Source: a virus
Taxonomy: Duplodnaviria; Heunggongvirae; Uroviricota; Caudoviricetes
Direction: 5' to 3' (one strand)
IMG/VR virus record: IMGVR_UViG_3300029571_000007
Span: 19,007 to 83,006 of that record
Length of the DNA: 64,000 nt
The translations under genes were made by a program, and so were the position numbers. The notes below the pieces were generated by a model. That model was not told the DNA's origin, did no database searches, and worked only from the letters and a program-made list of their open reading frames with translations. How positions within the stretch are numbered: position 1 is the first letter of the stretch; the number at the start of each line of letters is the position of its first letter. Positions 4,998-63,342 of the stretch are shown here, one piece after another.

Positions 4998-5180
4998 TGT
5001 TTCACCTTCTTTCTTTTTATTCCAATAAAAAAGAGAAGCAGTAGCAATACCACTTCTCATAAAAATTCAACTTATAAAACACTATGAAAGTGCAATTCAC
5101 TTCACTTAGCACACCCACTGCGCATCGAACACAGGTTAGAAGTTTTGGAGACTTCATTCTTGCCAAAAGATAGGTGCATA

Positions 5181-5264
5181 CGCCGTGTTAGGGATTCGAA
5201 CCCCAAAGACTTTTACATCCAGACTGTTTTCAAGACAGCACCCTCGACCAATCGGACACACGGC
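5181..5264 (-). tRNA. tRNA-Ser (anticodon TGA), type II with long variable arm
   Basis: Manual cloverleaf: acceptor GCCGTGT/ACACGGC, anticodon loop CTTGAAA, T-loop TTCGAAT, long variable arm. Confidence 0.75.
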
Positions 5265-5269
5265 ATGAG

Positions 5270-5357
5270 CGTAGTATATAGGACTTGAACCTATGCACCG
5301 AATAAACGATGACCTCTGATTAGCAATCAGGTGTAATACCAACTCTGCCAATACTAC
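5270..5357 (-). tRNA. tRNA-Ser (anticodon GCT), type II
   Basis: Acceptor GTAGTAT/ATACTAC, anticodon loop TTGCTAA, T-arm ATAGG-TTCAAGT-CCTAT, long variable arm; 5 nt from previous tRNA. Confidence 0.65.
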
Positions 5358-5446
5358 ATAATAAAAGAGTCACCTCATGAAGCGACTCTCTGTTACTATA
5401 CAAAAAATGTATAGCCTCGATGTCCATTTAAGTATCAGCTATTTAA

Positions 5447-5519
5447 TGATCTGTAGGAGATTCGGACTCCTGTTGCCGCCGTGAAAGGGCGATGTCCTAG
5501 ACCGCTAGACGAACAGACC
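5447..5519 (-). tRNA. tRNA-Glu (anticodon TTC)
   Basis: Closely resembles canonical bacterial tRNA-Glu (GTCTAGCGGTCTAGGAC..CCCTTTCACGGCGG..AGGAGTCCGAATCTCCT); acceptor GGTCTGT/ACAGATC. Confidence 0.85.
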
Positions 5520-5526
5520 TTGTAGG

Positions 5527-5554
5527 GTGGAAGAGTACCACCCATTATTTTTAC
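5527..5554 (+). terminator. Hairpin GGGTGG-AAGAGTA-CCACCC followed by ATTATTTTT (terminator-like on plus strand only)
   Basis: Seen in sequence; T-run is on plus-strand side, so it would stop antisense/rightward transcription, not the leftward genes. Confidence 0.3.
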
Positions 5555-6027
5555 AGAATAACTTCTGTTTCACCTTCAAACTTAGTATTTAAAGCACGAA
5601 TCTCAGCAAGTTTTTTACCAATTTCTTCCTGAATCTTAGTAGCGAAAAGTTCAACCTTTGCCTTACCAATCTTTTCGACACTATCAAAAGGCGCTTTAAC
5701 TTCTGATTCTGGAATCTTTGTAACATCTACAGAGAATGTAATATGAAGATTTTCATCTACAACAAATGACTGGTTAATAATATCTTTTAACTCAACAGAA
5801 ATAATAGTTGAATCATCAACTTCACTATCAGTTGTAACTGGATCTCCATTAGAATCAGCTTTCATATTAGATTTAAAGGATATCTTAGAATATTCGATTG
5901 TTCTAACAAAATTATGCAACATATCTTTTTCAGTAGCAGCATCGGTATCTGATGTACCTAATTCTGCGACAGAAATATCTACACTAATAACGTTTTCATC
6001 AATAGTTTTACTAATATTTAATTTCAT
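5551..6027 (-). CDS. Hypothetical phage protein (158 aa, acidic)
   Basis: ORF track; overlaps upstream gene by 4 nt (ATGA), translational coupling. Confidence 0.6.
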   Translation of the reverse strand: MKLNISKTIDENVISVDISVAELGTSDTDAATEKDMLHNFVRTIEYSKISFKSNMKADSNGDPVTTDSEVDDSTIISVELKDIINQSFVVDENLHITFSVDVTKIPESEVKAPFDSVEKIGKAKVELFATKIQEEIGKKLAEIRALNTKFEGETEVIL

Positions 6028-6320
6028 GAATTTGTACCCTCGCTTTCGTTTGCAATTACTTGTTTATATCCGTCTCTAATAGCCATAAATAAATCACGCA
6101 ATACTTCTTTATCAATAGAGCAATCTAAATTTGACGTATCAAACTGTGGATCACTTACTGAAAAATCTAATGTTCCGTCATTCCGTGGCACGAACAAAAT
6201 TTCCACGTTATTGTTCAAGAGTAAAGTAATAGAATCTATTTTTTCACCATTGTTGGATGTAACTTTACGAACCTGTCCAACTTTTAATGGCTCTTGCTCA
6301 ATAATCAATCTACTTGCCAT
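6024..6320 (-). CDS. Hypothetical phage protein (98 aa)
   Basis: ORF track; SD-like AAGGAG upstream of ATG at 6320. Confidence 0.55.
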   Translation of the reverse strand: MASRLIIEQEPLKVGQVRKVTSNNGEKIDSITLLLNNNVEILFVPRNDGTLDFSVSDPQFDTSNLDCSIDKEVLRDLFMAIRDGYKQVIANESEGTNS

Positions 6321-6369
6321 AATACATACTCCTTTCTTTTATTTTTCGTTTTCCTTTTAATCATTGAAT

Positions 6370-6441
6370 TGCGGAAGCAGGACTCGAACCTGCATACTCT
6401 TGGTTATGAGCCAAGTGAGCTTCCATTGCTCGTCATTCCGC
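6370..6441 (-). tRNA. tRNA with anticodon CAT (Met or lysidine-Ile), atypical
   Basis: Perfect anticodon arm CTTGG-CTCATAA-CCAAG; T-arm GCAGG-TTCGAGT-CCTGC; D-stem GAGC/GCTC; but only 6 clean acceptor bp and a 3-nt linker before the D-stem, so possibly unusual or a pseudogene. Confidence 0.55.
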
Positions 6442-7277
6442 TATGATAATCAGCATAAAGCACTAACTAGCTGATATTGGACTGTACACATCCAGTTTAT
6501 AAATTAGACACACTAGGTATCCATGCTTTTCAAAATCACTTTAATCAGATTTACTCGCTAACTAACGCACGAGAAGGAGATTACTACCTGTGTCACCCAA
6601 AATATATTGCACTTATATAGTGACACTCCATATTTATCTGTCTTTCCAGATGTCAGACCGCCCAGTAGTCATTCGCTATTGTCTATCTCAAAAATTCAGA
6701 AAAGAAACTAGCGATAATTTCATTTCATATAAAAGCCTAATAGACATTGGTTTTTAATATTTAGACCACAAGCTCGAAAGACACTGTAGTACAAACTTGA
6801 ATTTAATGGTTCTCATTAACGCAGAGAAGCACGATCACTTCTATGGTTGATATTGACCGTTTTAGGACTTACAATGCTATATGAATAGTAAATGCCAAAA
6901 TATGTTAATCGTCTACTAAGGCAAGACCTCTCCATAACACCGCCAATAAGCAGTAGCAGTGGGAAGTTTTAGACCATTCCAAAGGTCAATAATTTCGCAA
7001 ACCGACCTTTATATTTATGTCACATATCGGTCAGTGACAGCTCACTTGTAAAAATCTATCAACGGATTGATAGACCGCCCTCACTTCTTTTGGATGTGAG
7101 CAGCTTATTTAACTTATCTATGATGGGCGGTGTATCCATCATCTCAGATACTCCGAAGAGTGTGTAGAGAACCATTTTCTACCTATAGATAAGTTGTTGT
7201 ATTTATTTATTCTTTTGTTTTAAGAATGCATATTTTTGAATTTGTCAAGGGTTAGATGAAAGCTTCATCGGGATTGT

Positions 7278-8312
7278 CTACAAATCAGAGAGTGATTTTT
7301 GTTCTACTTGTTTAATTTCTCCATCTGCAAAATATTTTGCGAATTGCTCATCTGCATCAATGTCCTTGTACACTGAAACCATATCAAGGGAACTCCAACC
7401 TACTAGCATTTGAATTACATCATCAGGAAGACCACTTCGAGAACAAGAAGTTGTAAAGAAGTGACGAAGACTGTGGAAATAAAAGTCTTCTCCTAAATGT
7501 TTGGTGAATGTATCAGCCCAACTGTCAAGAGTGCTTGAATCCATAGGTTCATCTATATATTCTCCATTTACTTTCTTTGGAAATAACCATTCTGATTCAA
7601 TTCCGTGTTCTTTTCTATAATTCATCCACAAATCAAAATATGGCTTAAACGGTTTTGCAAGTGTATACACCACTAACATTTTTCCACGAGATCCTCTTCC
7701 TTTTGTTTGGATTTTTTCAGGTGTCTTATATAAAGAACCATATATAATATTTTCGTCATCAAAATAAGACACTTTGAATCGTGGTAATTCACTCTTACGT
7801 CTACCGCTAAATGCAGCTAATGCTAAAATACAAGCCTTGTCATACTTGCCTTTTTCAACCCAATAATCAAGCATTCCCTGTACTTGCTCATCAGATAATA
7901 CAGTTTTAGTAAATACTTTCTCATTTGCAGGATTTTCAATTTTGCGTATAATTGGTTTAAAATTTTCATACTCATCATCCAATATAGCTTCTACATAATT
8001 TGAAAGCGATGAGAGAGTAGATTTTACTCTACGCATTCTAGCTGGCGACCATTTATATTCAGTAAGGCAAAAACTCTGATAACGAGCAATATCCCTCTTA
8101 GATAAATCAATAAAGAATTTGTTGTCACAATGCTTAAGTAGATAAACCCAAAAAATAAAAAGGTCACGCCTATACGCATTAATTGTATTCGGAGATCTAT
8201 CCACTGAACGAAGATAATCCAAAAAGTCATTTCCTAATTCTATATTTTCTTTATTACACTGAGTCAATAACTCATCGGTAACAATATTATTGTGTTGTAT
8301 TTTTCTACCCAT
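7278..8312 (-). CDS. int: Tyrosine-type site-specific recombinase / integrase
   Basis: 344 aa; C-terminal catalytic signature HSLRHFFTT...VGWSSLDMVSVYKD (R..HxxR..Y); N-terminal SAM-like domain. Confidence 0.8.
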   Translation of the reverse strand: MGRKIQHNNIVTDELLTQCNKENIELGNDFLDYLRSVDRSPNTINAYRRDLFIFWVYLLKHCDNKFFIDLSKRDIARYQSFCLTEYKWSPARMRRVKSTLSSLSNYVEAILDDEYENFKPIIRKIENPANEKVFTKTVLSDEQVQGMLDYWVEKGKYDKACILALAAFSGRRKSELPRFKVSYFDDENIIYGSLYKTPEKIQTKGRGSRGKMLVVYTLAKPFKPYFDLWMNYRKEHGIESEWLFPKKVNGEYIDEPMDSSTLDSWADTFTKHLGEDFYFHSLRHFFTTSCSRSGLPDDVIQMLVGWSSLDMVSVYKDIDADEQFAKYFADGEIKQVEQKSLSDL

Positions 8313-8341
8313 AAAATCTCACTTCCTTTCAAACAAAAAGA

Positions 8342-8383
8342 AGCAGTAGTATCATTAACTAACCGCTTCTTGTCGCATTTTTA
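8342..8383 (-). terminator. Rho-independent terminator between tRNA-Tyr and integrase (minus strand)
   Basis: Minus-strand hairpin AAGAAGCGGT..ACTGCTTCTT followed by TTTGTTTG. Confidence 0.4.
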
Positions 8384-8477
8384 TATATTCATCATAAATC
8401 CCATAATCAGCTATGCCACTAATCATGAGAACATATATTTATTCTCTGTTTCCATTCACAGAAAACATTAAATTAGT

Positions 8478-8556
8478 GGGTAGGGTTGGACTCGAACCAA
8501 CGAAGCCGAAGCGCCTGATTTACAGTCAGGTGTAATTGCCGCTATACGACCTACCC
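8478..8556 (-). tRNA. tRNA-Tyr (anticodon GTA), long variable arm
   Basis: Acceptor GGGTAGG/CCTACCC, anticodon arm CCTGA-CTGTAAA-TCAGG, T-arm GTTGG-TTCGAGT-CCAAC; coordinates +/-2. Confidence 0.75.
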
Positions 8557-8599
8557 ATACAAAAAGAGCGTGCAACATACGCCACACACTCCAAATAAT

Positions 8600-9196
8600 C
8601 TAAAATCCAAAAGCCTTTAACATCTTCTGAATATCTTCATGACTTAACTCATTGCTAGAGTAGTAAGAATAACTCATATAAGAGTCGCCATCTGATCTAC
8701 TAGCAGTAAATCCGTGAGTATTTCCATCTTCGTCTTCAGAAGTATGTAAATAAGTTTCATCATGCGCAGGACAGTTTTCACAATCACCATCGCAATCATC
8801 ATATTCATTGCCAATTCCTACTTCATATACCTCATCAGCTTCAATCTTTGGAATAATCTTGGAATTACAATCATCAAAGATGTATACAACATCGGCTTCA
8901 ATAAAGATGTATCCATTATCTCTCTTAACTGGTTCGCACCAGATTTCATCATCTAATAAGCTAATAACGAAAGCATCGTCATACCCATCCCATTCTGGAT
9001 TACCAAACTTATCAATAAATGCAATACCGTATCCAATTCCAATAAGTTCACGAATAATCTCTTTTGCATCTTCATATTTAGCAACAACGTCTATTGAGTT
9101 GTATTTGTCATCAGATTTTATTCTGTCGTATGTATTTGAAACAACACAAGCAAAATCTTCATAGTCTTCAAAATGTAATGTTTTTATAATAATCAC
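8600..9196 (-). CDS. Hypothetical acidic protein (198 aa)
   Basis: ORF track; strand-consistent; opposite-strand ORFs 8762..8956 and 8808..9164 judged spurious. Confidence 0.6.
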   Translation of the reverse strand: MIIIKTLHFEDYEDFACVVSNTYDRIKSDDKYNSIDVVAKYEDAKEIIRELIGIGYGIAFIDKFGNPEWDGYDDAFVISLLDDEIWCEPVKRDNGYIFIEADVVYIFDDCNSKIIPKIEADEVYEVGIGNEYDDCDGDCENCPAHDETYLHTSEDEDGNTHGFTASRSDGDSYMSYSYYSSNELSHEDIQKMLKAFGF

Positions 9197-9207
9197 AACC
9201 TTTCAAA

Positions 9208-9492
9208 TTAAGCGTTCTTTACGGCATCTTTAAGTGCCTTACCTGCTTTAAACTTAGGTGCTTTTGAAGCTTCTATGTGAAGTGACTCACCTGTAAGTGG
9301 GTTTCTACCTTCTCTAGCAGCTCTTTCAACTACTTCAAATGTACCAAAACCAACTAACTGAACCTTGCCACCTGCTATAAGTTCATCAGTTATTGATTTT
9401 ATTACACCATCAACAATAGTAGTTAAATCCTTCTTTGATACATTTATATCAATATTTTCCTGTGTCTTTGCAACTAATTCTGTCTTATTCAT
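9208..9492 (-). CDS. HU/IHF-family histone-like DNA-binding protein
   Basis: 94 aa; GFGTFEVVERAAREGRNPLTGESLHIEASKAPKFKAGKALKDAV matches HU-family signature arm. Confidence 0.85.
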   Translation of the reverse strand: MNKTELVAKTQENIDINVSKKDLTTIVDGVIKSITDELIAGGKVQLVGFGTFEVVERAAREGRNPLTGESLHIEASKAPKFKAGKALKDAVKNA

Positions 9493-9600
9493 AAAAAAAA
9501 TCTCCTTTTAATCTATAATGTTTTTGCACTTTTAATATAATAAATGCTGATTTAATAAAAGAGGGTAGTAGTCAATACGATCTACTCCCTCAAAAAAATC

Positions 9601-10656
9601 TTATTCAACCCAAAGCTGAACCTTATCAATATATCTACCAAAACAACCAGCATATCCGTCCTGTCCATTTACAGTTTGATCATCTATCTGAACAGGGTAA
9701 TATTCGTCCATACCCTGTGGCGATACCTGTATATATAGACACTTGTATTCATAACCATCAGGTGTATAGAATACTGCTTTTAATGCGTCAATAGGTGTTC
9801 TACCGTTACCTGCGTAACCATTTTCGTCATCATTAATGTCATAGCCATCAACTTCTGGAAGCCAATCGCCGTTAAGTAAGTGAACCTGATATCTTACATA
9901 ACCTTCACTAACACCAATGGCAATACCTGTAATTGCCTGATCATCACTAGCACCAGCCCAATCATCTCTATCATGAACTTCATCCCACCAACGATTATTT
10001 GACTTAGCCCTATAATAAACATCAACATGACCTAAATCATTAGTTCTACCACCTGTAGTTTCATTATTATCCGAACTATCATTGTCAGAACAATCTTCAC
10101 TTGAATCTTCTGATACTACTTCGCCTGTTAAGGCTTCGACTATAGCATTCGCACAGGCTTCAGCATCCCATCTGTTAGCATCGTCTCTATCATCCACGAA
10201 GCAACATTCAATTAAGATAGCAGGGGCTTTTGTGTTTCTAAGAACATAAAGTCCTGAATTGGTTTTAAATCCTCTGTTCCTAATATTAAGTTTTTCTGAA
10301 ATTGCCTCACAAATCTTCGAACCAATTTCTTCTGTTCCAGTGTCATATCCGTAAACTTCTGTACCACCAGTAGAATCATCGCCTTCGTAATCATCTCTAC
10401 CAGAGTTAAGATGTATAGATATATCTAAATCAACATTATGTGAATTACATTTAGCAACAATCGCTGCTAAACAACCATTCTGTGACGTGTTTTCATCACA
10501 CGTACAATCATAAACTGTATGTCCAAGTGCTTCTAACTTTGCAATTACAGCATTCTTGACGATTCTGTCTTCAACAGACTCCTGTAAAATACCAACTGCA
10601 CCATAAGCACCCTGATCCTGTGGACAGTGACCTGCATGTACATTATATGTAGCCAT
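9601..10656 (-). CDS. Endolysin: N-acetylmuramoyl-L-alanine amidase (amidase_3-like) with C-terminal wall-binding region
   Basis: N-terminal HAGHCPQDQGA...SIHLNSG...LIECCFVDD resembles amidase_3; 351 aa; lysis-module position upstream of packaging genes. Confidence 0.75.
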   Translation of the reverse strand: MATYNVHAGHCPQDQGAYGAVGILQESVEDRIVKNAVIAKLEALGHTVYDCTCDENTSQNGCLAAIVAKCNSHNVDLDISIHLNSGRDDYEGDDSTGGTEVYGYDTGTEEIGSKICEAISEKLNIRNRGFKTNSGLYVLRNTKAPAILIECCFVDDRDDANRWDAEACANAIVEALTGEVVSEDSSEDCSDNDSSDNNETTGGRTNDLGHVDVYYRAKSNNRWWDEVHDRDDWAGASDDQAITGIAIGVSEGYVRYQVHLLNGDWLPEVDGYDINDDENGYAGNGRTPIDALKAVFYTPDGYEYKCLYIQVSPQGMDEYYPVQIDDQTVNGQDGYAGCFGRYIDKVQLWVE

Positions 10657-10733
10657 TTTATATTCCTCCTATACAAAATAAATAAAAATAAAAGAGGGTA
10701 GTATAAAACTATCCTCATAAGAACAAAATATAA

Positions 10734-11969
10734 TTAACTAAGCTGAATATCTTTTATCATTTCAACTTCGTTATCTTTTAAAATTGCTATTGTTTGAGAT
10801 GCTACACTACTGCAATAAAAATTTTTGGAAAAATCATTGAATCCGCTTAAGCAGCCTGTAGATATAGCATATCTACCATGATTTTCTGACTGAATGGAAA
10901 AATTGTGGAGATGTCCACTAAAGATTAAATCATAGAACTGATTATCACTAGAAATAATTTTTGCAAGATTATATCTATCATTTTTATATTTATCACCATG
11001 AATAAATTTACAAGATAAACCACAAACAGTAATATTTATCTCAGAATCATTATAATTTGTATCTAATATAGAAATGCGTTCACAGCCACTTACATCAACC
11101 AAATCTTTAATATGTTCAGTAATAAGCACATTTGCGTTGTCGCCCTCATAATTCTTTTTCTTGTCACCTGACATACGATCATGATTTCCAGCAATACCAC
11201 CAAATACAACATTGCAATCTTCAGCTAAAGCGACTAATAATCTATATATTAGTTTAGTAGCCTTATGTATCTGCATAGATTGTAAAAATTCACAATTATG
11301 TGCTTGTGTTTCTCTCATATATGAATTCTCGATCATATCACCTGTTGATATAACCAGAACCTGACGGATATTATATAATTCAATATACTTCTTACATTCA
11401 GAAATATATTTATCTATTCTTTCATTAGCAATTTCCCAATTAAAATTATTACCATTACAATTGTTAATTATATAGCCAATATGCCAATCAGTAATATGAC
11501 ATATCATAGTGTAATCAGATTCTTCTTCAACAGAAGAGTACATATATGTAGGAATTTCCATTGAGAAATTATTATCTTTCATATATTGTTTTAATTCATC
11601 AGCAACAGTAATGCAAGGAACTAAATCTCGTTTAAGTTTATTAAGTTTCAATCTATCATTATGTATTTGCTGTTTAACAATATATTGTTCACCTAGTACT
11701 TCTTTAGCATCATCAAGAGTACTACTTTTTTCTGTTATGTTTTTAGCTTTTAAATATTCTCTAACAAAATAATTGCCAAATATGGTCTGACTAGCCTTTC
11801 TAACGCTATCATAATGACATTTTATATCATATTTATCTACAATTTCTTTCCAATCTATATCTGAAATACCAGACATTTTATTCGAAATTTCTTGTAAAAC
11901 CTGTTCATAAGTTGATGGGGTTAGCCCATATTTTTTTAATTCTTCTTCGAAATTATAAATATAGTTCAC
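10734..11969 (-). CDS. Calcineurin-like metallophosphoesterase
   Basis: Motifs ITDWHIG (DxH), TGDMIEN (GD), GNHD (GNHD/E); 411 aa. Confidence 0.6.
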   Translation of the reverse strand: MNYIYNFEEELKKYGLTPSTYEQVLQEISNKMSGISDIDWKEIVDKYDIKCHYDSVRKASQTIFGNYFVREYLKAKNITEKSSTLDDAKEVLGEQYIVKQQIHNDRLKLNKLKRDLVPCITVADELKQYMKDNNFSMEIPTYMYSSVEEESDYTMICHITDWHIGYIINNCNGNNFNWEIANERIDKYISECKKYIELYNIRQVLVISTGDMIENSYMRETQAHNCEFLQSMQIHKATKLIYRLLVALAEDCNVVFGGIAGNHDRMSGDKKKNYEGDNANVLITEHIKDLVDVSGCERISILDTNYNDSEINITVCGLSCKFIHGDKYKNDRYNLAKIISSDNQFYDLIFSGHLHNFSIQSENHGRYAISTGCLSGFNDFSKNFYCSSVASQTIAILKDNEVEMIKDIQLS

Positions 11970-11976
11970 CTACTCT

Positions 11977-12183
11977 CTATTCTTCATTAGATTCAACAGG
12001 TTCATCGAGTTCACTTTCCTCTTTTACCTTCACATTTATTTCAACACTACCACCATTAAATACTGATAGAAGAGTAGCAAGTTTCTTTTCTCCACCATCT
12101 ACTTCAACAGTCATATTATCTGTGTCAATGATACCTGCAATCTTCATTGCGGTTGTCTCGGTACGTTTATAAACAAAATTCAT
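11977..12183 (-). CDS. Hypothetical protein (68 aa)
   Basis: ORF track; 4-nt overlap with upstream gene. Confidence 0.5.
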   Translation of the reverse strand: MNFVYKRTETTAMKIAGIIDTDNMTVEVDGGEKKLATLLSVFNGGSVEINVKVKEESELDEPVESNEE

Positions 12184-13100
12184 AAATTTAGCTCCTTTTT
12201 TAATATTTCTTCTATATTTTCATAATCCCAATACCAAATTTCCAACAATTGAATATTATGTTTTTTGGCATACTTACGTTTTCGCATATCATGTTCTTGT
12301 TGGATTTGATATTTCTTTTTACTTTGTATTCTTGCTTTGCCGTCATGGAATTCACCTTGATATTCAATTAAAAGATTGTATTGAGGCAAATAAAAATCAT
12401 ATGATAATAAGCCGTTATTAACACCTAACAAATTGTCATAATTCTGTTGTGGTATATAATCTATATTGTTATTATAAAGCAATTGTCTAATTTTTTGTTC
12501 GCCTTTTGATTCATTACAAAATGGGCATCTTTGACCACGCAAAAAATTATTTGCAATCATTTTAAAAGAATTATTACATTTTTTATGTAGAAATAGAATT
12601 TTATTAGAAGATTTTGTATATTCCGACAAAACTTTGTAATCTTCTCCATACGGACAAGTATTTACTTTTTCAATAAATTCTTCAGTTGTATAATGATATG
12701 TTTTTTTACATACAGGACAACCATGCCCATGTAATATACTTGAAGCGATTGGACTCCATTTATATCCACATATTCTACAATGAACATCTATTGGATTTAA
12801 CGCACCTGTATATGTGCCATCTACTATTATATCTTCGTTATCAAATTCTCTTTTAAATTGAGCATCAGTTTTTCCTCTTGCTTGTCTTATTGCACAAGGT
12901 TTATGAATGCGTCCCATTAGTAAATATGATGGAGTGGTTTCAAAAGTTTGTCCACATATTTTACACATACATAGTATTTTATTTTTTGAACCAGTATAAG
13001 ACCCTAATATTTCCACTGGCATATTTAATTTTGAATATTCTTCAATAAATTCTTCATGTGTTTTCTTTTTAGGCATTTTGTAACATCTCCTTCGTAACAT
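12180..13100 (-). CDS. Multi-zinc-ribbon protein with C-terminal endonuclease-like (DUF559/PD-(D/E)xK-like) domain; possible homing endonuclease
   Basis: Four CxxC pairs; C-terminal YDFYLPQYNLLIEYQGEFHDG resembles restriction-endonuclease-like fold proteins. Confidence 0.4.
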   Translation of the reverse strand: MLRRRCYKMPKKKTHEEFIEEYSKLNMPVEILGSYTGSKNKILCMCKICGQTFETTPSYLLMGRIHKPCAIRQARGKTDAQFKREFDNEDIIVDGTYTGALNPIDVHCRICGYKWSPIASSILHGHGCPVCKKTYHYTTEEFIEKVNTCPYGEDYKVLSEYTKSSNKILFLHKKCNNSFKMIANNFLRGQRCPFCNESKGEQKIRQLLYNNNIDYIPQQNYDNLLGVNNGLLSYDFYLPQYNLLIEYQGEFHDGKARIQSKKKYQIQQEHDMRKRKYAKKHNIQLLEIWYWDYENIEEILKKELNL

Positions 13101-13103
13101 AAT

Positions 13104-13319
13104 TTAAAAAATTAGATATGTCTCTTTATCTATCCTCCAATTTCCTAAATTTTTATTAAGCAACTCATTTTTCTCAAATAAAAATACCAAAAATCCTTTT
13201 GACTTCTGGTCTGTATCTATTCTTTTAAGTTGTGAGCCATTGTCAATAAGGTAATTTGCTAATCGTTTGCTTTTGCATACAAACAAAATATTTTCCTCCA
13301 TAAAATTAAAAATTCCCAC
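13104..13319 (-). CDS. Hypothetical protein (71 aa)
   Basis: ORF track. Confidence 0.45.
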   Translation of the reverse strand: MGIFNFMEENILFVCKSKRLANYLIDNGSQLKRIDTDQKSKGFLVFLFEKNELLNKNLGNWRIDKETYLIF

Positions 13320-13626
13320 CAGAACGCTTTCTGCCAGGATTGTAATACATTTGTTTACTTTTATTCTGCTTTACTTTAATATACTCACGAATCTTCCTAA
13401 TATAATTTTCATCATAGCTTAATCTAGCATGTGATTCTAAATAATAACACCCACAACGAGTAGGAATTTTATTTGATAATACATTGTCTATAAGCTTATA
13501 CGATGGATTAAGATTTGAAAGATGAGTATGTTTTTCTGTGTCATCTTTTCTGCATATACGATAGCCGTTTTCAGTCTTGTCAATATAAAAATCTTTATAT
13601 TCTATTCGATTTTTCATAGCCAGCAC
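13306..13626 (-). CDS. Hypothetical protein (106 aa), Cys/His-containing
   Basis: ORF track; a further ~55-aa GTG-started ORF lies at ~13628..13795 (-). Confidence 0.5.
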   Translation of the reverse strand: MLAMKNRIEYKDFYIDKTENGYRICRKDDTEKHTHLSNLNPSYKLIDNVLSNKIPTRCGCYYLESHARLSYDENYIRKIREYIKVKQNKSKQMYYNPGRKRSGGNF

Positions 13627-13827
13627 CTACTTGACGAATTTATCTTCGATGTAACGCTTTCCACTACAAGTCTTGTAATAACCTATGTGTTCGCCTCTAC
13701 GATCTACATATCCTCGTCTTGTGTTTCTGATTACACCTTCAGATAATAATTTTTCAATTTCACTTTTAGAAATCTGTTTAATAATTTTCACATCCTTTGA
13801 TTTATTTCCTACAAAGTAGGATAGTAG

Positions 13828-13902
13828 TTGGAAATGTAGGATTTGAACCTGCGACCTCTTGATCCCAAATCAAGCGTTCTAGCCAAGCTGAACTAATTCC
13901 CA
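13828..13902 (-). tRNA. tRNA-Pro (anticodon TGG)
   Basis: Full cloverleaf: U8, D-stem GTTC/GAAC, anticodon arm CTTGA-TTTGGGA-TCAAG with U33 and G37, T-loop TTCAAAT; U1-A72 first pair. Confidence 0.75.
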
Positions 13903-14791
13903 AAATAAAAAATCCCATACCGAAGTATGAGATCCTTACTTAATATGAGCTGAGATATTTGACTCAATACACTAACATCTACTGTGGTTGGACACAGTTT
14001 ATCACACAAGCGATTAACTTGTAGTTAGCAACAACACCGATTTTGACATAATCGGCAAACTCTTACCACAAAGTATTATAGATTTTCTTTCTGCACATTC
14101 TTCCTTGCGAGATTCATAGGTTGCAGCCTATTAGAGTTGTACGTACTTGTACTTTCTCATATAGTACCTTGCGAGTGCTATATGTCACCATATTACAGAT
14201 GAATAAGTTGTTTGTCTCTTTGCGGTTATACACACTTTTGCTTGTTCTTTTCTATCAGTAAATCAAATAATATTTTTATTATTAAGGAATTCTGTTCATT
14301 CACCAAAAGTATGTACTTACAAATGGACGATGAGGTGTATATTTGACCATCAGTACCTTTTGAGTACCACCCAATCATCACCATCCTGCTCGGATTGCGA
14401 TCTCCTTGCTTTTTGATTCCATCCCTGTTTTTCAACTTAAGAGATATTATCAAAATCCTATCAACAGTTATACTTGCGGTATTCCCGTCAATAGTACACA
14501 AATCATCCCCACATTTCTGTGTTAATACAGTGCCTATTTCGAGACACCCACCAAATCAATTTGTTTAAGAATCTCATGCAATGCAATTGATTACATAAAC
14601 TCATAAATAGTCATTATCAGTTGACCTCTGACCTTAGATATGGCGTAGATTTTATGTGTTTTCCGTTAAACTGTATTATACAGTCGCAGCCTTATAATAC
14701 GATAAGAACCACTTTATACGTGTCGCCACGCTTATTTTAAGATTCAACATCCTCCGATCCGAAACCGACCAGTCCTATAAAAATAGGATAA

Positions 14792-14863
14792 CTCCCACAA
14801 CAGGATTCGAACCTGTAACTTACGAATTAACAGTTCGTTGCTCTACCATTGAACTATATGGGA
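14792..14863 (-). tRNA. tRNA-Asn (anticodon GTT)
   Basis: D-arm TAGTTCAATGGTAGAGCA, anticodon arm ACGAA-CTGTTAA-TTCGT, T-arm ACAGG-TTCGAAT-CCTGT; U1-A72. Confidence 0.8.
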
Positions 14864-14992
14864 AGAGTATCAGTGATTACACGATTTTTTAAATAATGCA
14901 ACCACCGATATAAGAAAGAGAGGTTAATTTATAAAATAAACTTTTAATATTATGTAATGCCACATAGGGCAGGATATTAAGAAAAGCTGATT

Positions 14993-15445: not shown

Positions 15446-18319
15446 TTAGCTGTCGATTTCGCATTTTGCCTGTTTTTTTGTAATTTTGAAGCCAATATCA
15501 AACAATTTAACATCAGCACCATTTTCTTCTAATTGGGAAATTTCATGTTTCGACTGGATAATAGCTTTATTGAAACTATCATTGCCACAGAGATACATAA
15601 TTTCTAATAAAAGATTTTTGATTTGAGAATTCTCTTTATCTTCAAGAGAAGAGAGCAGACGATATAATGTAGAAAATCCAATTGTTTCATCTTCAATGTC
15701 GGAAATAAGGTCTTCTCTTAATTTATTCGCTTTTTCATTTTTATCTTCTTTTGTATCTGAGTCAGAAGCGTAAATATTTTTTCTTTCATTTATATATCTT
15801 TTTAAAATACTATAAATTTTATTTATTTGTTTTTGATTTACACGATTTGTTCTAAATAAAGAGTTATCTAATATAGATACAAATGGTAGCCAATCCTTTT
15901 TATATGGATTCTTAATTTTGAATCCATTAATAATGGTCTGTAAATAGTCCATTGAAGTGTGACATTTACAATAATGTTTCTTATCAGGATTGTAATATCC
16001 TTTTTGTTTAGAGATATGAGAGAAGAAGTGTGGCATACGTTTCTTACCTCTTACTAATTCGCCTTCTTCATTCTCTTCATACTCACGCAAAAGTTCATCA
16101 TACTTTTCACGTAGTTTATCTAACTCTTTACCGTTGTTGATAATAAATTCTTTCTTTGCCTTATCAATTTCAATTCCAGACATTACATCTAATTGACATA
16201 TATCATAATATAACTCCTTAATATCATTATAAGTAGCACCATGATACATCTTATCCCAAAGTAAAGAATTTAATTCCTGAGATAGATTAACAATCTCACC
16301 GATTTTATTTACAGATGTTTTAATGTCAAGATCTGCTTGCTGTTCTGGTGTATAATATCTTTTTTTCTTTGTAGAATCAACATTCGCAGTTGGTGTTTTA
16401 AACAACTGATAATTTCTTTTAGCTGCACGAATGAGCTTTTCATTATCTGTCAACATTACTGTATCACTATCGAAGTCAGCACCCGATAACCTCTGCAATA
16501 CATTTTCTCCAATAGAATTAATACACACAATCTCATTTGTAAGATTAAGATAACAATCTATCAATTTATTCTCCGTATTATATGGAAGCCAAATGTTTCC
16601 GATTGTAACATGAGGTGAACGACTGGCAAGAAGAGTTTTATTATATTCAAAGCGTGTACTATGTATATTACCAATTCCAATTTGACTTTTTCCTTCAAAC
16701 TTACCAATTGATTGCTGTAACATCTCTATTGGATTACCAAGAAGAGTAGAGTAGTTACCATTTACATAGATATGCCCATTTTTGAGATTTTTGTAATATG
16801 ATGCCAATAAATCATGTAAAAAGTCTTGATAATATTTAGTTTTAGTAAAATTATCATTTACACACATTAAATTATAAACCACATCATTCTTGCTACTCAT
16901 AGGTTTATCCATAGGTGACATTTCATCAATATCAGGATATTTAATGTAATAACGTACAACTTCTGGTCTATCTCTAAGCATTTGTGCAAAGTCAAGCGAT
17001 TCCTGCAAAAATTCTCTTACTTCATCTTTGGACATCTGAAGGGTATTGAGCAACTGATAATGAGTCTGTACTAAGCGACCTCCAAAGAAATGAGTTTTCT
17101 TATCATGCTTTACAACACCAAAATCAGGATATAAGTGGTTAAGCCATTCATCCCATGTACTAAATTTCAAATATTTAATACTGTTAGGTGTGGTAATTAA
17201 CTTTACATCTTCAATTCGTGTAGCTCTTGTTTTACCATTAAGCTGAGACACATCCGTTATATTATTATCTTTGAACCATTGTTGGATATTACAGTTGAAA
17301 CAACAAGATTTGAACATTAGATTTCTAAGTAGAAGCATACCATATTCTGAATAATCACCAAATAGAGATATATCCATAAGAGACTGACCATCCCAAATTG
17401 TATTTGTAATTTCACAATTCTTTTCAGTAGTTTTAAGCCATCCGTCTTCATCATGAGTCTCGATTACGTCCTCATTAAACACGCTGTCATAATCATCAAT
17501 TAAAAGAATATTTTCTGGTTTAATTGGAATGGTATCAATAATGCTACTAGATGGGAGAGCAATATATCCCTCATATGCAGCTAAATCAATCGGATCTCCT
17601 TGGTTATATTTAAGACCACCTGAACTGAATTTTATAATCGGTTCATATAAATCTTCTCTGATAAAAAGACATTTACCAACTCTTGCAGAGCCAGTAGAAC
17701 GTTTCATACGACAATATTTAATACCATTACATATAAATCCATCTTTATACAACTCAGTTCTAAGTTCTGCATTTGTCTTTATAGTCTTCGGTTCACCTTT
17801 TTTATGGTATTGAGTTTGAATCTCTTTAATAACAGTTTTATCCTTTTTATCATAGATATTTACCTGCTTTTTAACAAATGGCTTTGGTATATCAGTTGGG
17901 TTTTCAATTTTTTCATTCGTCTTAATTCCAACAATTTCACCTTCGCTATTTTTAGCAATACCATCTTTAAAAGACAGATTTCTATAATCATATCCAAGCC
18001 TGACAAAAGTATTTTTGTTCATCTGATTCCATTCTTTTACAGAATACTTAAACGTGAGATTAATTACATTTACAGAATAATCATGTTTTTTAATTCTAAA
18101 TGAAAAATCATGTTTTCTGAATTTTCTATAATAAATATCCTTTAACTCTATAAGGTCTAAGCTATAATCAAGTGTATTGATAAATTTTCGTAAATTATAC
18201 TGTCCATCTTTGAGCTTTAAATTATATCCTTCTGGATTTTCCTCAATGTAATGTGCTGATAAATAAATATCTTTTGCATCAATAGAGGGAATATATATAT
18301 TATTGTTTGTCATCAGCAT
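15446..18319 (-). CDS. Large protein (957 aa) with RNAP-type metal-binding motif GADFDSD; candidate YonO-like non-canonical single-subunit RNA polymerase
   Basis: Unambiguous long ORF; motif LSGADFDSDTVML (residue ~615, nt ~16463-16477) matches the NADFDGD aspartate triad of beta-prime DPBB domains; no polB/polA motifs seen. Confidence 0.35.
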   Translation of the reverse strand: MLMTNNNIYIPSIDAKDIYLSAHYIEENPEGYNLKLKDGQYNLRKFINTLDYSLDLIELKDIYYRKFRKHDFSFRIKKHDYSVNVINLTFKYSVKEWNQMNKNTFVRLGYDYRNLSFKDGIAKNSEGEIVGIKTNEKIENPTDIPKPFVKKQVNIYDKKDKTVIKEIQTQYHKKGEPKTIKTNAELRTELYKDGFICNGIKYCRMKRSTGSARVGKCLFIREDLYEPIIKFSSGGLKYNQGDPIDLAAYEGYIALPSSSIIDTIPIKPENILLIDDYDSVFNEDVIETHDEDGWLKTTEKNCEITNTIWDGQSLMDISLFGDYSEYGMLLLRNLMFKSCCFNCNIQQWFKDNNITDVSQLNGKTRATRIEDVKLITTPNSIKYLKFSTWDEWLNHLYPDFGVVKHDKKTHFFGGRLVQTHYQLLNTLQMSKDEVREFLQESLDFAQMLRDRPEVVRYYIKYPDIDEMSPMDKPMSSKNDVVYNLMCVNDNFTKTKYYQDFLHDLLASYYKNLKNGHIYVNGNYSTLLGNPIEMLQQSIGKFEGKSQIGIGNIHSTRFEYNKTLLASRSPHVTIGNIWLPYNTENKLIDCYLNLTNEIVCINSIGENVLQRLSGADFDSDTVMLTDNEKLIRAAKRNYQLFKTPTANVDSTKKKRYYTPEQQADLDIKTSVNKIGEIVNLSQELNSLLWDKMYHGATYNDIKELYYDICQLDVMSGIEIDKAKKEFIINNGKELDKLREKYDELLREYEENEEGELVRGKKRMPHFFSHISKQKGYYNPDKKHYCKCHTSMDYLQTIINGFKIKNPYKKDWLPFVSILDNSLFRTNRVNQKQINKIYSILKRYINERKNIYASDSDTKEDKNEKANKLREDLISDIEDETIGFSTLYRLLSSLEDKENSQIKNLLLEIMYLCGNDSFNKAIIQSKHEISQLEENGADVKLFDIGFKITKKQAKCEIDS

Positions 18320-60644: not shown

Positions 60645-61023
60645 AATACAGGAGAATAATAAAATGGATAAAGATACAAATAAGCGAAATGAACTTAGAA
60701 AACAGTTACAAGCCTTATCAAAGGAGCGAATTATTGAATTATATATTCACTTATTCATGAATTTTGCTAATGATAAGGATGAAACCGATTGGGAAGATAT
60801 TAAATAGAAGAGAACAGATTGCACAAGTTTACCGACCTAAACAATCTGCTCAGAGAATAAAATATAGGATAAACTATATATGTTCTATTATAACAAATCT
60901 ATTTGGCTAATTCAAGCCAGTTTATCCTATAACAATTAGTCTTTTGACTACGGGCTATTTTGAGTCCGAATAGTGAGGATTATATCACTCACTGAAAAGT
61001 ATGTAATTTATATGTAATTTGAA

Positions 61024-61186
61024 GTTTTGGAAGTATATGAAATTACATACTAACAAAATATCTGGCAACAGAGAGGAGATGTTTCAGTTGTTTTGGAAGT
61101 ATAGTTACATACTAGCAAAATTACATAATATGTATCGACACAAGTTATAAATTTTTAGAAGTATATAAAATTACATCTCATTAAAA
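61024..61186 (+). CRISPR. Mini array C: 3 repeats (36, 32, 36 nt; degenerate) with 30- and 29-nt spacers, preceded by leader with anti-repeat
   Basis: R1 GTTTTGGAAGTATATGAAATTACATACTAACAAAAT 61024-61059; S1 61060-61089; R2 61090-61121 (4-nt deletion); S2 61122-61150; R3 ATTTTTAGAAGTATATAAAATTACATCTCATTAAAA 61151-61186. Confidence 0.55.
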
Positions 61187-61286
61187 GAATATATAAATGA
61201 AATTAAAATCAATTCTATTGCGGTAGATTTTACTGCCGAATCGTGAGTGCAATGCAACTCATGAAAATCTATGTAATAAGTTTGAG

Positions 61287-61454
61287 GTTTTAGATACATA
61301 TAAAATTACATAGGTATAAAACAAACCTGTTGAAATTGTTGAAGATATAGAAGTTTTAGATACATATAAAATTACATAGGTATAAAACACTTGCGTTGTT
61401 GTACTTGTAAGCTGTTTAATTTTAGAGATATTTAAAATTACAAAAAATATAAAA
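61287..61454 (+). CRISPR. Mini array A: 3 repeats of 36 nt (third degenerate, overlapping nuclease SD) with two 30-nt spacers
   Basis: R1 GTTTTAGATACATATAAAATTACATAGGTATAAAAC 61287-61322; S1 61323-61352; R2 identical 61353-61388; S2 61389-61418; R3 ATTTTAGAGATATTTAAAATTACAAAAAATATAAAA 61419-61454. Confidence 0.75.
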
Positions 61455-61469
61455 GGAGATTTACAAATT

Positions 61470-62858
61470 ATGGGAAACAATAGAATGACAATTTGTAGAA
61501 AAATTAAATTATTTCCAGTAGGAGATAAGGATGAAATCAATAGAGTATATAACTTTATTAGAAATGGTCAGTATGCTCAATATCAGGCTTGTAACCTGCT
61601 TATGGGACAGCTTATGAGTGAATATTACAAATATAATCGTGATATTAAGAATGAAGAATTTAAGGCAAGACAGAAAGAAATAATGACAAACTCTAATATC
61701 ATATTAAAAGATATTGATTTTGCAACTGGTGTAGACACTCCATCAGCCGTTACTCAGAAAGTCAAGCAGGATTTCAGCACAGCTTTAAAGAATGGATTGG
61801 CTAAAGGTGAACGAACTGTAACAAATTATAAGAGAACTAATCCACTTATTACAAGAGGCAGAAACTTAACTTTTTATCATGAGTATGAAACATATCATGA
61901 TTTTTTAGACAAGATTAATGATTCTGATTTGGCGGTATATGTCAAGTGGGTTAATAAAATTGTATTTAAGGTTGTGTTTGGCAATCCGCATAGGTCATTA
62001 GAGTTAAGATCTGTTATTCAGAATATATTAGAAGAGAATTATAAAGTGCAAGGAAGTAGCATTGAAATTGATGGTAAGTCAATCATTTTAAATCTCTCAA
62101 TATCTATTCCAAAACAACTTAGAGAGCTGGATGAAAATATAGTAGTAGGTGTTGATTTAGGCATTGCAGTTCCTGCTATGTGTGCTTTAAACAATAATCT
62201 TTACGAGAGATTGGCAATTGGAAATGCAGATGATTTTCTAAGAATAAGAACTAAAATGCAAGCTCAGAGAAAAAGATTACAGAAGTCATTACGAAATACT
62301 TCTGGTGGTCATGGTAGAGCAAAGAAACTGAAAGCATTAGAAAGATTGCAGAAAGCAGAAGTACATTTTGTTGAAACATATTGTCATATGATAAGTAAAA
62401 GAGTCGTTGATTTTGCTTTAAAACATAATGCTAAATACATAAATATTGAGAATTTAACAGGATATGATACAAGTGATTTTATCCTGAGAAATTGGAGTTA
62501 TTATAAACTTCAAGATTATATTACATATAAAGCAGCTAAATACGGAATAGAAGTAAGAAAAATCAATCCTTGTTATACATCACAGATTTGTAGTGTATGT
62601 GGTAATTGGGAGTTTGGTCAGAGAAAGTCACAGTCAGTATTTGAATGTGCAAATGAGAATTGTGATAGTCATAAAAAATATGAAAAAACTGGTTTTAATG
62701 CAGACTTCAATGCTGCCAGAAACATTGCAATGTCAACTCTTTGGATGGGAAGTGGACAAGTTACTGAAAAGAGTAAACAGGAAGCAAGAGAATATTATGA
62801 TATCTCTGAAAAATATGAACAAAGTAAGAATGGTTCAGAGAATAATAAAGTAGCTTAA
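61470..62858 (+). CDS. TnpB/Cas12-like RNA-guided nuclease candidate (462 aa), RuvC D-E-D plus zinc finger; compact type V-like effector
   Basis: N-terminal RKIKLFPVGDKDEINRVYNF (TnpB-like WED start); RuvC-I VVGVDLGIAVPAM; RuvC-II KYINIENL; zinc finger CYTSQICSVCGN...FECANENCDSH; RuvC-III FNADFNAARNIA. Confidence 0.8.
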   Translation: MGNNRMTICRKIKLFPVGDKDEINRVYNFIRNGQYAQYQACNLLMGQLMSEYYKYNRDIKNEEFKARQKEIMTNSNIILKDIDFATGVDTPSAVTQKVKQDFSTALKNGLAKGERTVTNYKRTNPLITRGRNLTFYHEYETYHDFLDKINDSDLAVYVKWVNKIVFKVVFGNPHRSLELRSVIQNILEENYKVQGSSIEIDGKSIILNLSISIPKQLRELDENIVVGVDLGIAVPAMCALNNNLYERLAIGNADDFLRIRTKMQAQRKRLQKSLRNTSGGHGRAKKLKALERLQKAEVHFVETYCHMISKRVVDFALKHNAKYINIENLTGYDTSDFILRNWSYYKLQDYITYKAAKYGIEVRKINPCYTSQICSVCGNWEFGQRKSQSVFECANENCDSHKKYEKTGFNADFNAARNIAMSTLWMGSGQVTEKSKQEAREYYDISEKYEQSKNGSENNKVA

Positions 62859-62968
62859 GTGCTACTTAATCAATCGTAAGATTGCAGGTGATTTTGCACC
62901 TGAATGGCGAGGTTGTTAATTAATGGCACTCGTTAGAATCTATGTTAATAGTATCTGTGTGATTTGAG

Positions 62969-63070
62969 GTTTTAGATATGTTTAATTTAACATAGATACA
63001 AAACTACTTTAACCAACAATATACTATGTTCTTTGTTTTAGATATGTTTAATTTAACATAGATACAAAAC
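62969..63070 (+). CRISPR. Mini array B: 2 identical 36-nt repeats with one 30-nt spacer, downstream of nuclease gene, preceded by homologous leader
   Basis: R1 GTTTTAGATATGTTTAATTTAACATAGATACAAAAC 62969-63004; S1 63005-63034; R2 identical 63035-63070. Confidence 0.7.
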
Positions 63071-63342
63071 ACGGTTAAGACAACATTTTACTCAGTAAAA
63101 TGATTATTCAATATATACTACAGAAATGTTGAGATTATCAAGCTAATGGAAGAAAAATATAATACGAAAAGGAGAATAGTTAAATGTCAGTATTTTTTAT
63201 ATTAGTTTTAATAGGATTAATAATTTTATGGTTTCTACTGTCACCTTTATTTGAAAAAATTGGTAAGTTTGTTATCAATGTTATAAATAAAGTATTTTCG
63301 ACAGATGAAATAAATAATAACGAAGAAAAGGAGACAAAAGAA

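Follow-up and report, generated by a model that had tools for sequence, protein, structure and literature searches.

We report that a 64,000-nt stretch of viral DNA (IMG/VR record IMGVR_UViG_3300029571_000007, positions 19,007 to 83,006; the whole stretch is called the window below) very probably carries a functional type V-F1 CRISPR (short palindromic repeats that are clustered and regularly interspaced)-Cas12f1 locus aboard a large SPbeta-like phage of human-gut Firmicutes, its function being a prediction. The locus is made up of a single, catalytically intact Cas12f1 nuclease of 462 amino acids (aa) and three cassettes, of which C and A lie upstream and B downstream of the gene; each cassette would consist of a compact trans-activating CRISPR RNA (tracrRNA) and, directly after it on the same strand, a CRISPR array with one or two spacers. 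Led by these guides, Cas12f1 would, probably in dimeric form, cleave double-stranded DNA in which the protospacer lies beside 5'-CCA, and the system would remove or exclude competing mobile DNA from the infected or lysogenised cell. A preliminary description of the same DNA had drawn attention to the nuclease gene and to the repeats around it, and we state below where our analysis agrees with it and where it does not.

The features concerned are the following. Positions are those of the window, database loci used for comparison carry L numbers, and the junction is the sequence directly ahead of the first repeat.

60948-61023, plus strand: tracrRNA of cassette C (covariance model R1, 123 bits; cis fold z -4.3)

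61024-61187, plus strand: mini-array C, decayed, with repeats at 61024-61059, 61090-61121 (4-nt deletion) and 61152-61187

61216-61286, plus strand: tracrRNA of cassette A (R1, 117 bits; cis fold z -3.2; junction GTTTGAG)

61287-61454, plus strand: mini-array A, with identical repeats at 61287-61322 and 61353-61388 and a degenerate repeat at 61419-61454

61323-61352, plus strand: spacer A1, private to the window phage

61389-61418, plus strand: spacer A2, common to L007, L008 and L024

61470-62858, plus strand: cas12f1, type V-F1, 462 aa, assigned by open reading frame (ORF) reading and by profile and structure-database matches

62880-62968, plus strand: tracrRNA of cassette B (R1, 101 bits; cis fold z -2.2; junction ATTTGAG)

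62969-63070, plus strand: mini-array B, with identical repeats at 62969-63004 and 63035-63070 and spacer B1 at 63005-63034

63071-63110, plus strand: trailer of array B, without spacer, identical in L007, L008, L017, L018, L020 and L022

63084-63102, plus strand: trailer hairpin of 8 bp, CATTTTAC-TCA-GTAAAATG, read from the sequence

On sequence grounds the protein is a Cas12f1 of subtype V-F1 (formerly V-U3), that is, a member of a known group. Its best matches in PDB are 8hr5 (CnCas12f1, E 7.8e-88) and 9nzp (RhCas12f1, E 1.8e-81), followed in this order by 9nzo/9nzr, 8j3r/7wju and Un1Cas12f1; among the published names of these and neighbouring entries, 8HR5 is CnCas12f1, 9NZP is RhCas12f1, 9NZO/9NZR are Al3Cas12f and 9NZQ is OsCas12f (PMC13186708). 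The identity with RhCas12f1 is 40% over the whole length, the PADLOC models Cas12u3 (369 bits) and Cas12f (368 bits) both match across the full profile, and 462 aa falls within the Cas12f1 range of 400-550 aa. The catalytic TnpB/Cas12 motifs that the preliminary description had read in this ORF are indeed present: GVDLG at residue 227 (D229), NIENL at 325 (E327) and NADFNAARN at 410 (D412) form the RuvC triad, and D229 and D412 align with D210 and D388 of RhCas12f1, residues whose mutation inactivates that enzyme. Of the two CxxC pairs which it assigned to a zinc finger, the first is there (C374-x2-C377), whereas the second is really C393-x4-C398; the zinc-finger (TNB) domain so composed matches PF07282 with 57 bits.

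The same description considered the locus a candidate for a new type V subtype or a CRISPR-associated TnpB. With this we disagree, since the protein sits clearly within V-F1 Cas12f1: in profile comparison Cas12f1 comes out best while Cas12j and the curated TnpB models are weak, and a new subtype is unsupported because of the Cas12f1 matches and of a tracrRNA homologous to theirs. Among the features of V-F1, this system shows full-length homology, the D-E-D triad, the zinc finger, a tracrRNA with anti-repeat, an array with variable spacers and a 5' protospacer-adjacent motif (PAM). Two other assignments were tried and rejected, Cas12j (CasPhi), whose PADLOC model gives E 2e-5 without a significant stretch, and Cas12p ('Cas12 hacker'), whose structure 9jfs matches weakly (E 0.0024).

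Directly ahead of every array stands a compact tracrRNA of about 65-90 nt that belongs to it, a module which the preliminary description overlooked. The order of parts is the same throughout: stem 1 with the loop AUUUUR, GAA, stem 2 (GUGAG...CUCA), GAAAA, the anti-repeat, a linker of 0-25 nt, UUUGAG and the first repeat. The anti-repeat pairs with the 3' half of the repeat of its own array (AGTATGTAAT with the repeat segment ATTACATACT in cassette C, ATCTATGTAAT with ATTACATAGGT in cassette A, ATCTATGTTAA with TTAACATAGAT in cassette B), and anti-repeat and repeat covary among the three window cassettes. In cassette C, stem 1, stem 2 and the anti-repeat are joined by a second anti-repeat-like copy, and the junction is TTTGAA. 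The 5' half of the module is homologous to the experimentally used tracrRNAs of RhCas12f1 (ACGGTTGATTTAGCAACCGAAGTCTGAGG...CCACTCGGAAAGG...) and CnCas12f1 (ACAGGGCGATTTAACGTCCTAAGGCTGAGAG...CTACTCGGCAAGG...), both listed in PMC10090079 Supplementary Data 1.

These RNAs are supported by covariation. We aligned 24 distinct cassettes from the window and related loci; the pairs counted were those of the two stems, of the duplex that anti-repeat and repeat form, and of a pseudoknot joining the loop of stem 1 to the end of the repeat. In this alignment 96.9% of the cells are paired and compensatory changes occur in 17 of the 30 pairs; 0 of 500 shuffles come up to this, and controls in which the partner was slid by 1-3 columns give 30-48% pairing and at most 4 compensatory pairs. 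The pseudoknot, formed by the stem-1 loop with the last bases of the repeat, covaries as UUUUG/CAAAA, UUUUA/UAAAA, UUUGA/UCAAA and UUUCG/CGAAA, and its equivalent in the Rh guide is AUUUA/UAAAU. Covariance model R1, which was built from this alignment and has the window cassettes in its seed, finds in 64 kb only the three cassette sites, the next match (21 bits) being an internal repeat. When tracrRNA, first repeat and first spacer are folded in cis, both stems are recovered in all three cassettes, and in B and C the anti-repeat:repeat hairpin is recovered as well, with the spacer single-stranded. Because the tracrRNA runs straight into the first repeat, each cassette could express its first spacer as a natural single-guide RNA.

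Regarding the arrays, the preliminary description holds well. It had proposed 36-nt repeats and 30-nt spacers, and we confirm a period of 66 nt, so that the spacers are 30 nt long; the degenerate 3' repeat of array A does end at the GGAG ribosome-binding site ahead of the ATG, array B consists of two identical repeats and begins 110 nt past the stop codon, and the three decayed repeats of array C are where it had put them. The array C spacers (61060-61089 and 61122-61151) are old, being conserved in L007, L008, L017 and L019-L023. The repeat of array A has two copies in the window, and any copy appears in 0 of 100 shuffles. Repeat-like 36-mers (at most 10 mismatches) are confined to 61024-63070 in the 64 kb, with 1 match in 20 shuffles, and hence the repeats are not scattered through the phage genome in this window; the preliminary description had named such scattering as fatal to its reading. 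Array A ends 15 nt before the cas12f1 start codon and cassette B begins 22 nt after the stop codon; with gaps this short, co-transcription of guides and nuclease is likely.

Just upstream of cassette C there is a hairpin-flanked element (60869-60929, plus strand; GGATAAACT...AGTTTATCC) around a terminator-like stem at 60903-60920. Its outer stem covaries by eye (GGATAA/TTATCC in L001, GGAATAAT/ATTATTCC in L005). The element may terminate the upstream operon, or it may extend the first tracrRNA at its 5' end.

That the context is a phage, as was proposed earlier, is well founded. Portal and terminase genes are encoded in the window, and the terminase shares 45% identity with its counterparts in SPbeta-like phages. 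A Cas12f of 100% identity is carried by viral contigs in IMG/VR that measure 76 and 110 kb, and copies of 95-97% identity are on IMG/VR contigs of up to 186 kb. The absence of adaptation genes is likewise upheld: Pfam and PADLOC detect no Cas1, Cas2 or Cas4 family among the 82 window ORFs of at least 90 aa, nor any cas9-cas1-cas2-csn2 genes of type II-A in the window. Among GenBank phages the locus DNA has no match, and the Cas12f protein meets solely TnpB-like 'transposases' of 28-38% identity.

The comparison of sister phages concerns the spacers. Eighteen IMG/VR loci have a Cas12f 95-100% identical to that of the window and the same C-A-gene-B layout, with differing spacers. The distal elements (spacers A2, C1 and C2 and the trailer of array B) are shared among relatives; the tracr-proximal spacers are private, A1 and B1 occurring in the window alone among the compared loci. 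Nested series are found in array A, where L019 has R-GAAAGTCGG.. and L020 has R-TCAGCTTTC..-R-GAAAGTCGG..., and in array C, where a common GTACCTCAAC.. spacer has different spacers ahead of it in L019 and L023. Acquisition at the leader end would be expected to give such a polarity. One 30-nt spacer, GTAAAAGGAAAGTGGTCTGATGCTGATCTT (L008 2187-2420, L024 4000-4101), stands twice in array A of one phage and occurs again in array B of a second phage, its copies being flanked by different repeat types; no protospacer for it was found in IMG/VR. Different lineages further hold overlapping spacers from both strands of one target. Such a spacer pattern would be hard to explain without repeated acquisition and indicates that acquisition is ongoing.

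Some of these spacers have identifiable targets. Spacer B1 (TACTTTAACCAACAATATACTATGTTCTTT) matches 30/30 in five human-gut metagenome contigs, where the protospacer directly follows ...TATTCCA. The contigs encode a Rep_3 replication initiator (PF01051, PF21205), and one of 2,610 nt (L046) has a 77-nt terminal overlap and is therefore a circular plasmid of about 2.5 kb. The B1 target plasmid is similar, over part of its sequence, to plasmids from Waltera, Mediterraneibacter, Clostridium and Butyricicoccus, and a host among clostridia or Lachnospiraceae is suggested by the sequence likeness. In another contig (L045, OGYL01004054.1, 1-9156) an AT-rich Rep_3 plasmid segment with the B1 protospacer is joined to glycoside-hydrolase genes (GH66, GH31); the contig is thus chimeric through assembly, or else it holds a copy that has been integrated or cointegrated. 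Two spacers of sister phages, from L015 and L011-L014, have 30/30 matches in a gene for a tyrosine integrase, on opposite strands of it. This gene is on a viral contig of 28.6 kb, which encodes a CI-like repressor as well, and the protospacers are flanked by TTCCA and TACCA. A fourth flank is inferred from the spacer of L016, which starts straight after ACCA within the overlapping spacer of L007. All four flanks read 5'-CCA, which would be a C-rich PAM like those of RhCas12f1 and CnCas12f1; the CCA is on the spacer strand at the 5' side, and no consistent 3' motif is seen at the protospacers. The earlier suggestion of an RNA-guided module against competing mobile elements is thus supported by what the spacers match, a small Rep_3 plasmid and the integrase gene of a temperate element. 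Among the window spacers, a target was found for B1 and none for A1.

Several other matches were set aside. The sole match of the six window spacers against GenBank phages and PLSDB is A1 with 27/30 in MT835469.1, which we regard as chance and which has no CCA flank; a 20-mer of B1 in IMG/VR (L031, 20/30) has its other 10 nt mismatched and is again chance. B1 has no match in GTDB genomes, and the spacers of the relatives, compared with the window, give no self- or sibling-targeting.

How the phage obtains new spacers is a separate question. The new spacers are tracr-proximal and yet there is no cas1 or cas2 of the phage, and therefore acquisition would be supplied in trans. We detected 39 distinct arrays by periodicity alone (period 66 nt in 33/39 and 65 nt in 6/39) and read the 7 nt ahead of the first repeat, with the following junctions.

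ATTTGAG: 22 arrays

NTTTGAG: 11 arrays

AATTGAG: 1 array

TTTGGG: 4 arrays

TTTGAA: 1 array

In group-1 type II-A loci, leader and repeat meet in the conserved junction ATTTGAG/GTTT, which adaptation requires (PMC5382924); Cas1-Cas2 of S. thermophilus recognises at most 10 bp of the leader and 5 bp of the 36-bp repeat and integrates 30-bp prespacers (PMC6895254). Given that both the junction and the 36/30 geometry are as in type II-A, the phage arrays look like type II-A integration substrates, and it is at this very junction that new spacers would come in. One may go further and suppose that a type II-A Cas1-Cas2(-Csn2) of the host loads the type V-F arrays of the phage in trans, the arrays acting as decoys in a cross-type hijack. 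We put this forward tentatively, as a possibility that is rather unlikely to be right in this form; either selection or Cas12f itself would then account for the choice of 5'-CCA. Here the spacer end next to the PAM is leader-proximal, as in type I and type V arrays, whereas in type II-A arrays it is leader-distal. A simple host hijack is weakened by this difference, and canonical type II-A loading was not adopted as the main account, spacer orientation to the PAM being the opposite of that in type II-A.

We considered whether something other than a working Cas12f1 system could account for the locus. It might be an ordinary IS200/IS605 TnpB insertion sequence, the flanks being transposon ends or omega-RNA, and the names in databases do point that way: PHROGs labels the family 'transposase', public sources call the relatives 'IS605 OrfB transposase', the NCBIfam model 'guided_TnpB' scores 161 bits and OrfB_IS605 of Pfam matches weakly (25.5 bits, under its cut-off). 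However, the curated models IS200_TnpB (NF038281; cut-off 425 bits) and IS607_TnpB (NF038280; cut-off 350 bits) score 45.6 and 25.3 bits, far from their thresholds, and the ISDra2 TnpB structures match weakly (E 0.002). Transposon ends have not been found either. The preliminary description would have yielded to a TnpB with tnpA and recognisable left and right ends (LE/RE); no TnpA (Y1) family occurs among the 82 window ORFs, LE/RE ends are absent, and because of this and of the confinement of the repeats we conclude that the locus is not an ordinary IS200/605 TnpB. A transposon would also have to explain 36/30 units whose spacers vary between otherwise identical phages and match foreign DNA beside a PAM, as well as a scaffold RNA that lies upstream of the guides and is a tracrRNA with anti-repeat. 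We regard the insertion sequence as a very improbable explanation. As little credit can be given to the proposal that the arrays serve a host effector, such as a type II-A-like Cas9, and that Cas12f is an unrelated neighbour. The ATTTGAG/GTTT junction, the 36-nt repeats and the 30-nt spacers would fit type II-A (PMC5382924, PMC6895254), and phages borrowing the Cas proteins of their hosts have been discussed (PMC7162821). But covarying anti-repeats and pseudoknots tie each array to a tracrRNA of Cas12f type, the cassettes accompany cas12f in the close and distant relatives that we read (some IMG/VR stretches are without cas12f), and the 5'-CCA lies on the spacer strand as in Rh and Cn Cas12f1, with no consistent 3' motif.

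A decaying relic, or a regulator that does not cut, for instance a dCas-like repressor, deserves a more careful reply, and we nevertheless judge it improbable. The arrays are tiny, one repeat of the degenerate array C contains an indel, several relatives keep a tracr remnant only, downstream of the gene, and a repressor role was proposed for a phage 'dCas14' (PMC7162821). On the contrary, the catalytic residues D229, E327 and D412 are intact, as is the zinc finger, at least 18 viral contigs encode the protein with 95-100% conservation, recently gained spacers match their targets 30/30 with the correct PAM, and all RNA helices are kept paired by compensatory changes. Certain observations do weigh against a functional Cas12f1 locus. 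Array C is decayed and its junction mutated to TTTGAA. The PAM is read from only three direct protospacers and one inferred. No target of A1 was found among GenBank phages and PLSDB plasmids, and its exact 20- and 24-mers are absent in IMG/VR and JGI metagenomes. Spacer differences could partly come from recombination or deletion and not from acquisition. Sigma-70 promoter-like sites at the cassettes are not above shuffled expectation.

Concerning the last point, the phage may transcribe the locus with its own polymerase. A 957-aa ORF at 15446-18319 (minus strand) matches phrog_8308 (E 3e-94) and, weakly, a PHROG labelled RNA-dependent RNA polymerase. Given that the phage is SPbeta-like, we presume that it may be a single-subunit RNA polymerase of YonO type; if it is one, this would explain why sigma-70 scans are uninformative.

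Other contents of the window may be mentioned here. Rfam gives no match for the locus and finds in the window tRNAs and a skipping-rope RNA only. The latter (RF02924, 7114-7192, minus strand, 67 bits against a gathering score of 36.7) lies amid phage tRNA genes, and between the phage genes at 5109-14864 (minus strand) lie tRNA genes, eight in all (Trp, Ser x2, Glu, Met, Tyr, Pro, Asn). Pfam families in the window ORFs include two Phage_integrase proteins, a PemK/MazF toxin, a RelE toxin, an HU-like protein, a dCMP deaminase and an amidase; this set suggests that the phage is temperate and has toxin-antitoxin genes as cargo.

In databases the Cas12f protein has 1,684 relatives at E <=1e-10. Human-gut and mouse-gut relatives of 48-64% identity likewise sit among phage genes, with neighbours that include minor-capsid and scaffold proteins, YopX, and YorF and YorH of SPbeta. 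The human-gut relatives retain the layout of tracr, TTGAG and 36/30 units, and the mouse-gut loci keep the tracrRNA, with no clear array. GTDB representative genomes contain no relatives, in a scan that reaches close relatives only. In mouse-gut phages with a 64%-identical Cas12f, two Tad2-like proteins (an anti-defence family) are encoded a few kb downstream (L049, 9554-9811 and 11116-11625). A gapped pattern of the cassette is met in 50 stretches on about 40 IMG/VR contigs. On a Hadza-gut phage contig (L002) there are extra tracr-type modules at 3003-3163 and 8542-8635, 1 kb upstream and 3 kb downstream of cas12f, both with a large insertion in the loop of stem 2; as these modules lie kilobases from cas12f, it follows that cassettes can be dispersed in a genome. 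Seven loci (L061, L063, L065, L081, L088, L090, L091) have a solo tracrRNA and a single repeat (GTTTGACAGACCTATGAATTTACATGGGTACAAAAC) with no second repeat, and in the IMG/VR contigs with solo cassettes no cas12f is detectable within the 2.8-14 kb fetched. Solo cassettes may be fixed single-guide units or orphans served by a distant cas12f.

The need to describe this locus is, in our opinion, easy to illustrate. It offers a natural and well-populated example (the cassette is on about 40 viral contigs) of how a phage would keep a CRISPR weapon current without adaptation genes of its own, and, as its integration site resembles the type II-A leader-repeat junction, a concrete candidate route of acquisition. 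It also ties a phage Cas12f to a class of targets in gut Clostridia, small Rep_3 plasmids as well as temperate elements, and thereby makes a phage-plasmid conflict testable. On the practical side, the clade would provide Cas12f1 nucleases with a predicted C-rich (CCA) PAM, and its naturally minimised tracrRNAs of about 65-90 nt, with three distinct predicted tracr/repeat pairs per protein, may be useful in the design of compact guides and in multiplexing. Fused tracr-repeat-spacer transcripts would be natural single guides, among the shortest Cas12f scaffolds.

Phage-borne Cas14/V-F systems as such are already in the literature (PMC7162821; see also PMC12297358). Al-Shayeb et al. (2020) described Cas14/type V-F and V-U systems of huge phages with compact arrays and without Cas1/2/4, and the type V spacers of huge phages were aimed at other mobile elements (PMC7162821). 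The present locus is alike in all these respects, a miniature type V effector on a phage, compact arrays, no Cas1/2/4 and spacers against mobile elements. The phage here is SPbeta-like, of about 75-186 kb and from the human gut, whereas that work reports the phenomenon across clades, and in it we found no description of the multi-cassette tracr-array layout or the type II-A-like junction (PMC7162821). More generally, we have not found described the three-cassette architecture, the minimal, array-fused, covarying tracrRNAs or the type II-A-like junction.

With IS200/IS605 TnpB and its omega-RNA the system shares the ancestral RuvC and zinc-finger fold and a scaffold contiguous with the guide (in a cis transcript that is proposed here), and it differs in the lack of a transposon context, in the exchangeable array spacers and in the pairing of scaffold and repeat, which is the logic of tracrRNA and CRISPR RNA. 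The Cas12p 'hacker' is also a phage-borne miniature Cas12 with a tracrRNA, but it belongs to a different family, of 500-700 aa, with a GTN PAM and dependence on thioredoxin (bioRxiv 2025.01.20.633832).

The closest known systems are RhCas12f1 of Ruminiclostridium herbifermentans (9NZP) and CnCas12f1 of Clostridium novyi (8HR5), which form the V-F1 clade with a C-rich PAM. The homology is full-length, with the same RuvC triad and zinc finger, and the tracrRNAs have in common a 5' stem 1 whose loop is rich in U, a stem 2 that reads GAA-N-GUGAG...CUCA, the anti-repeat and the pseudoknot with the 3' end of the repeat. The PAM is CCA here, CCCA/TCCA for Rh and ACCT for Cn. The phage tracrRNA has about 65-90 nt compared with about 95-124 nt in Rh and Cn, because the third hairpin is missing. 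Unlike those systems, ours is phage-borne, its tracrRNA adjoins the first repeat, and one nuclease is accompanied by three cassettes with mutually covarying tracr/repeat pairs; the repeats are 36 nt long as against 29-30 nt in Rh and Cn, with 30-nt spacers and a leader junction in the style of type II-A.

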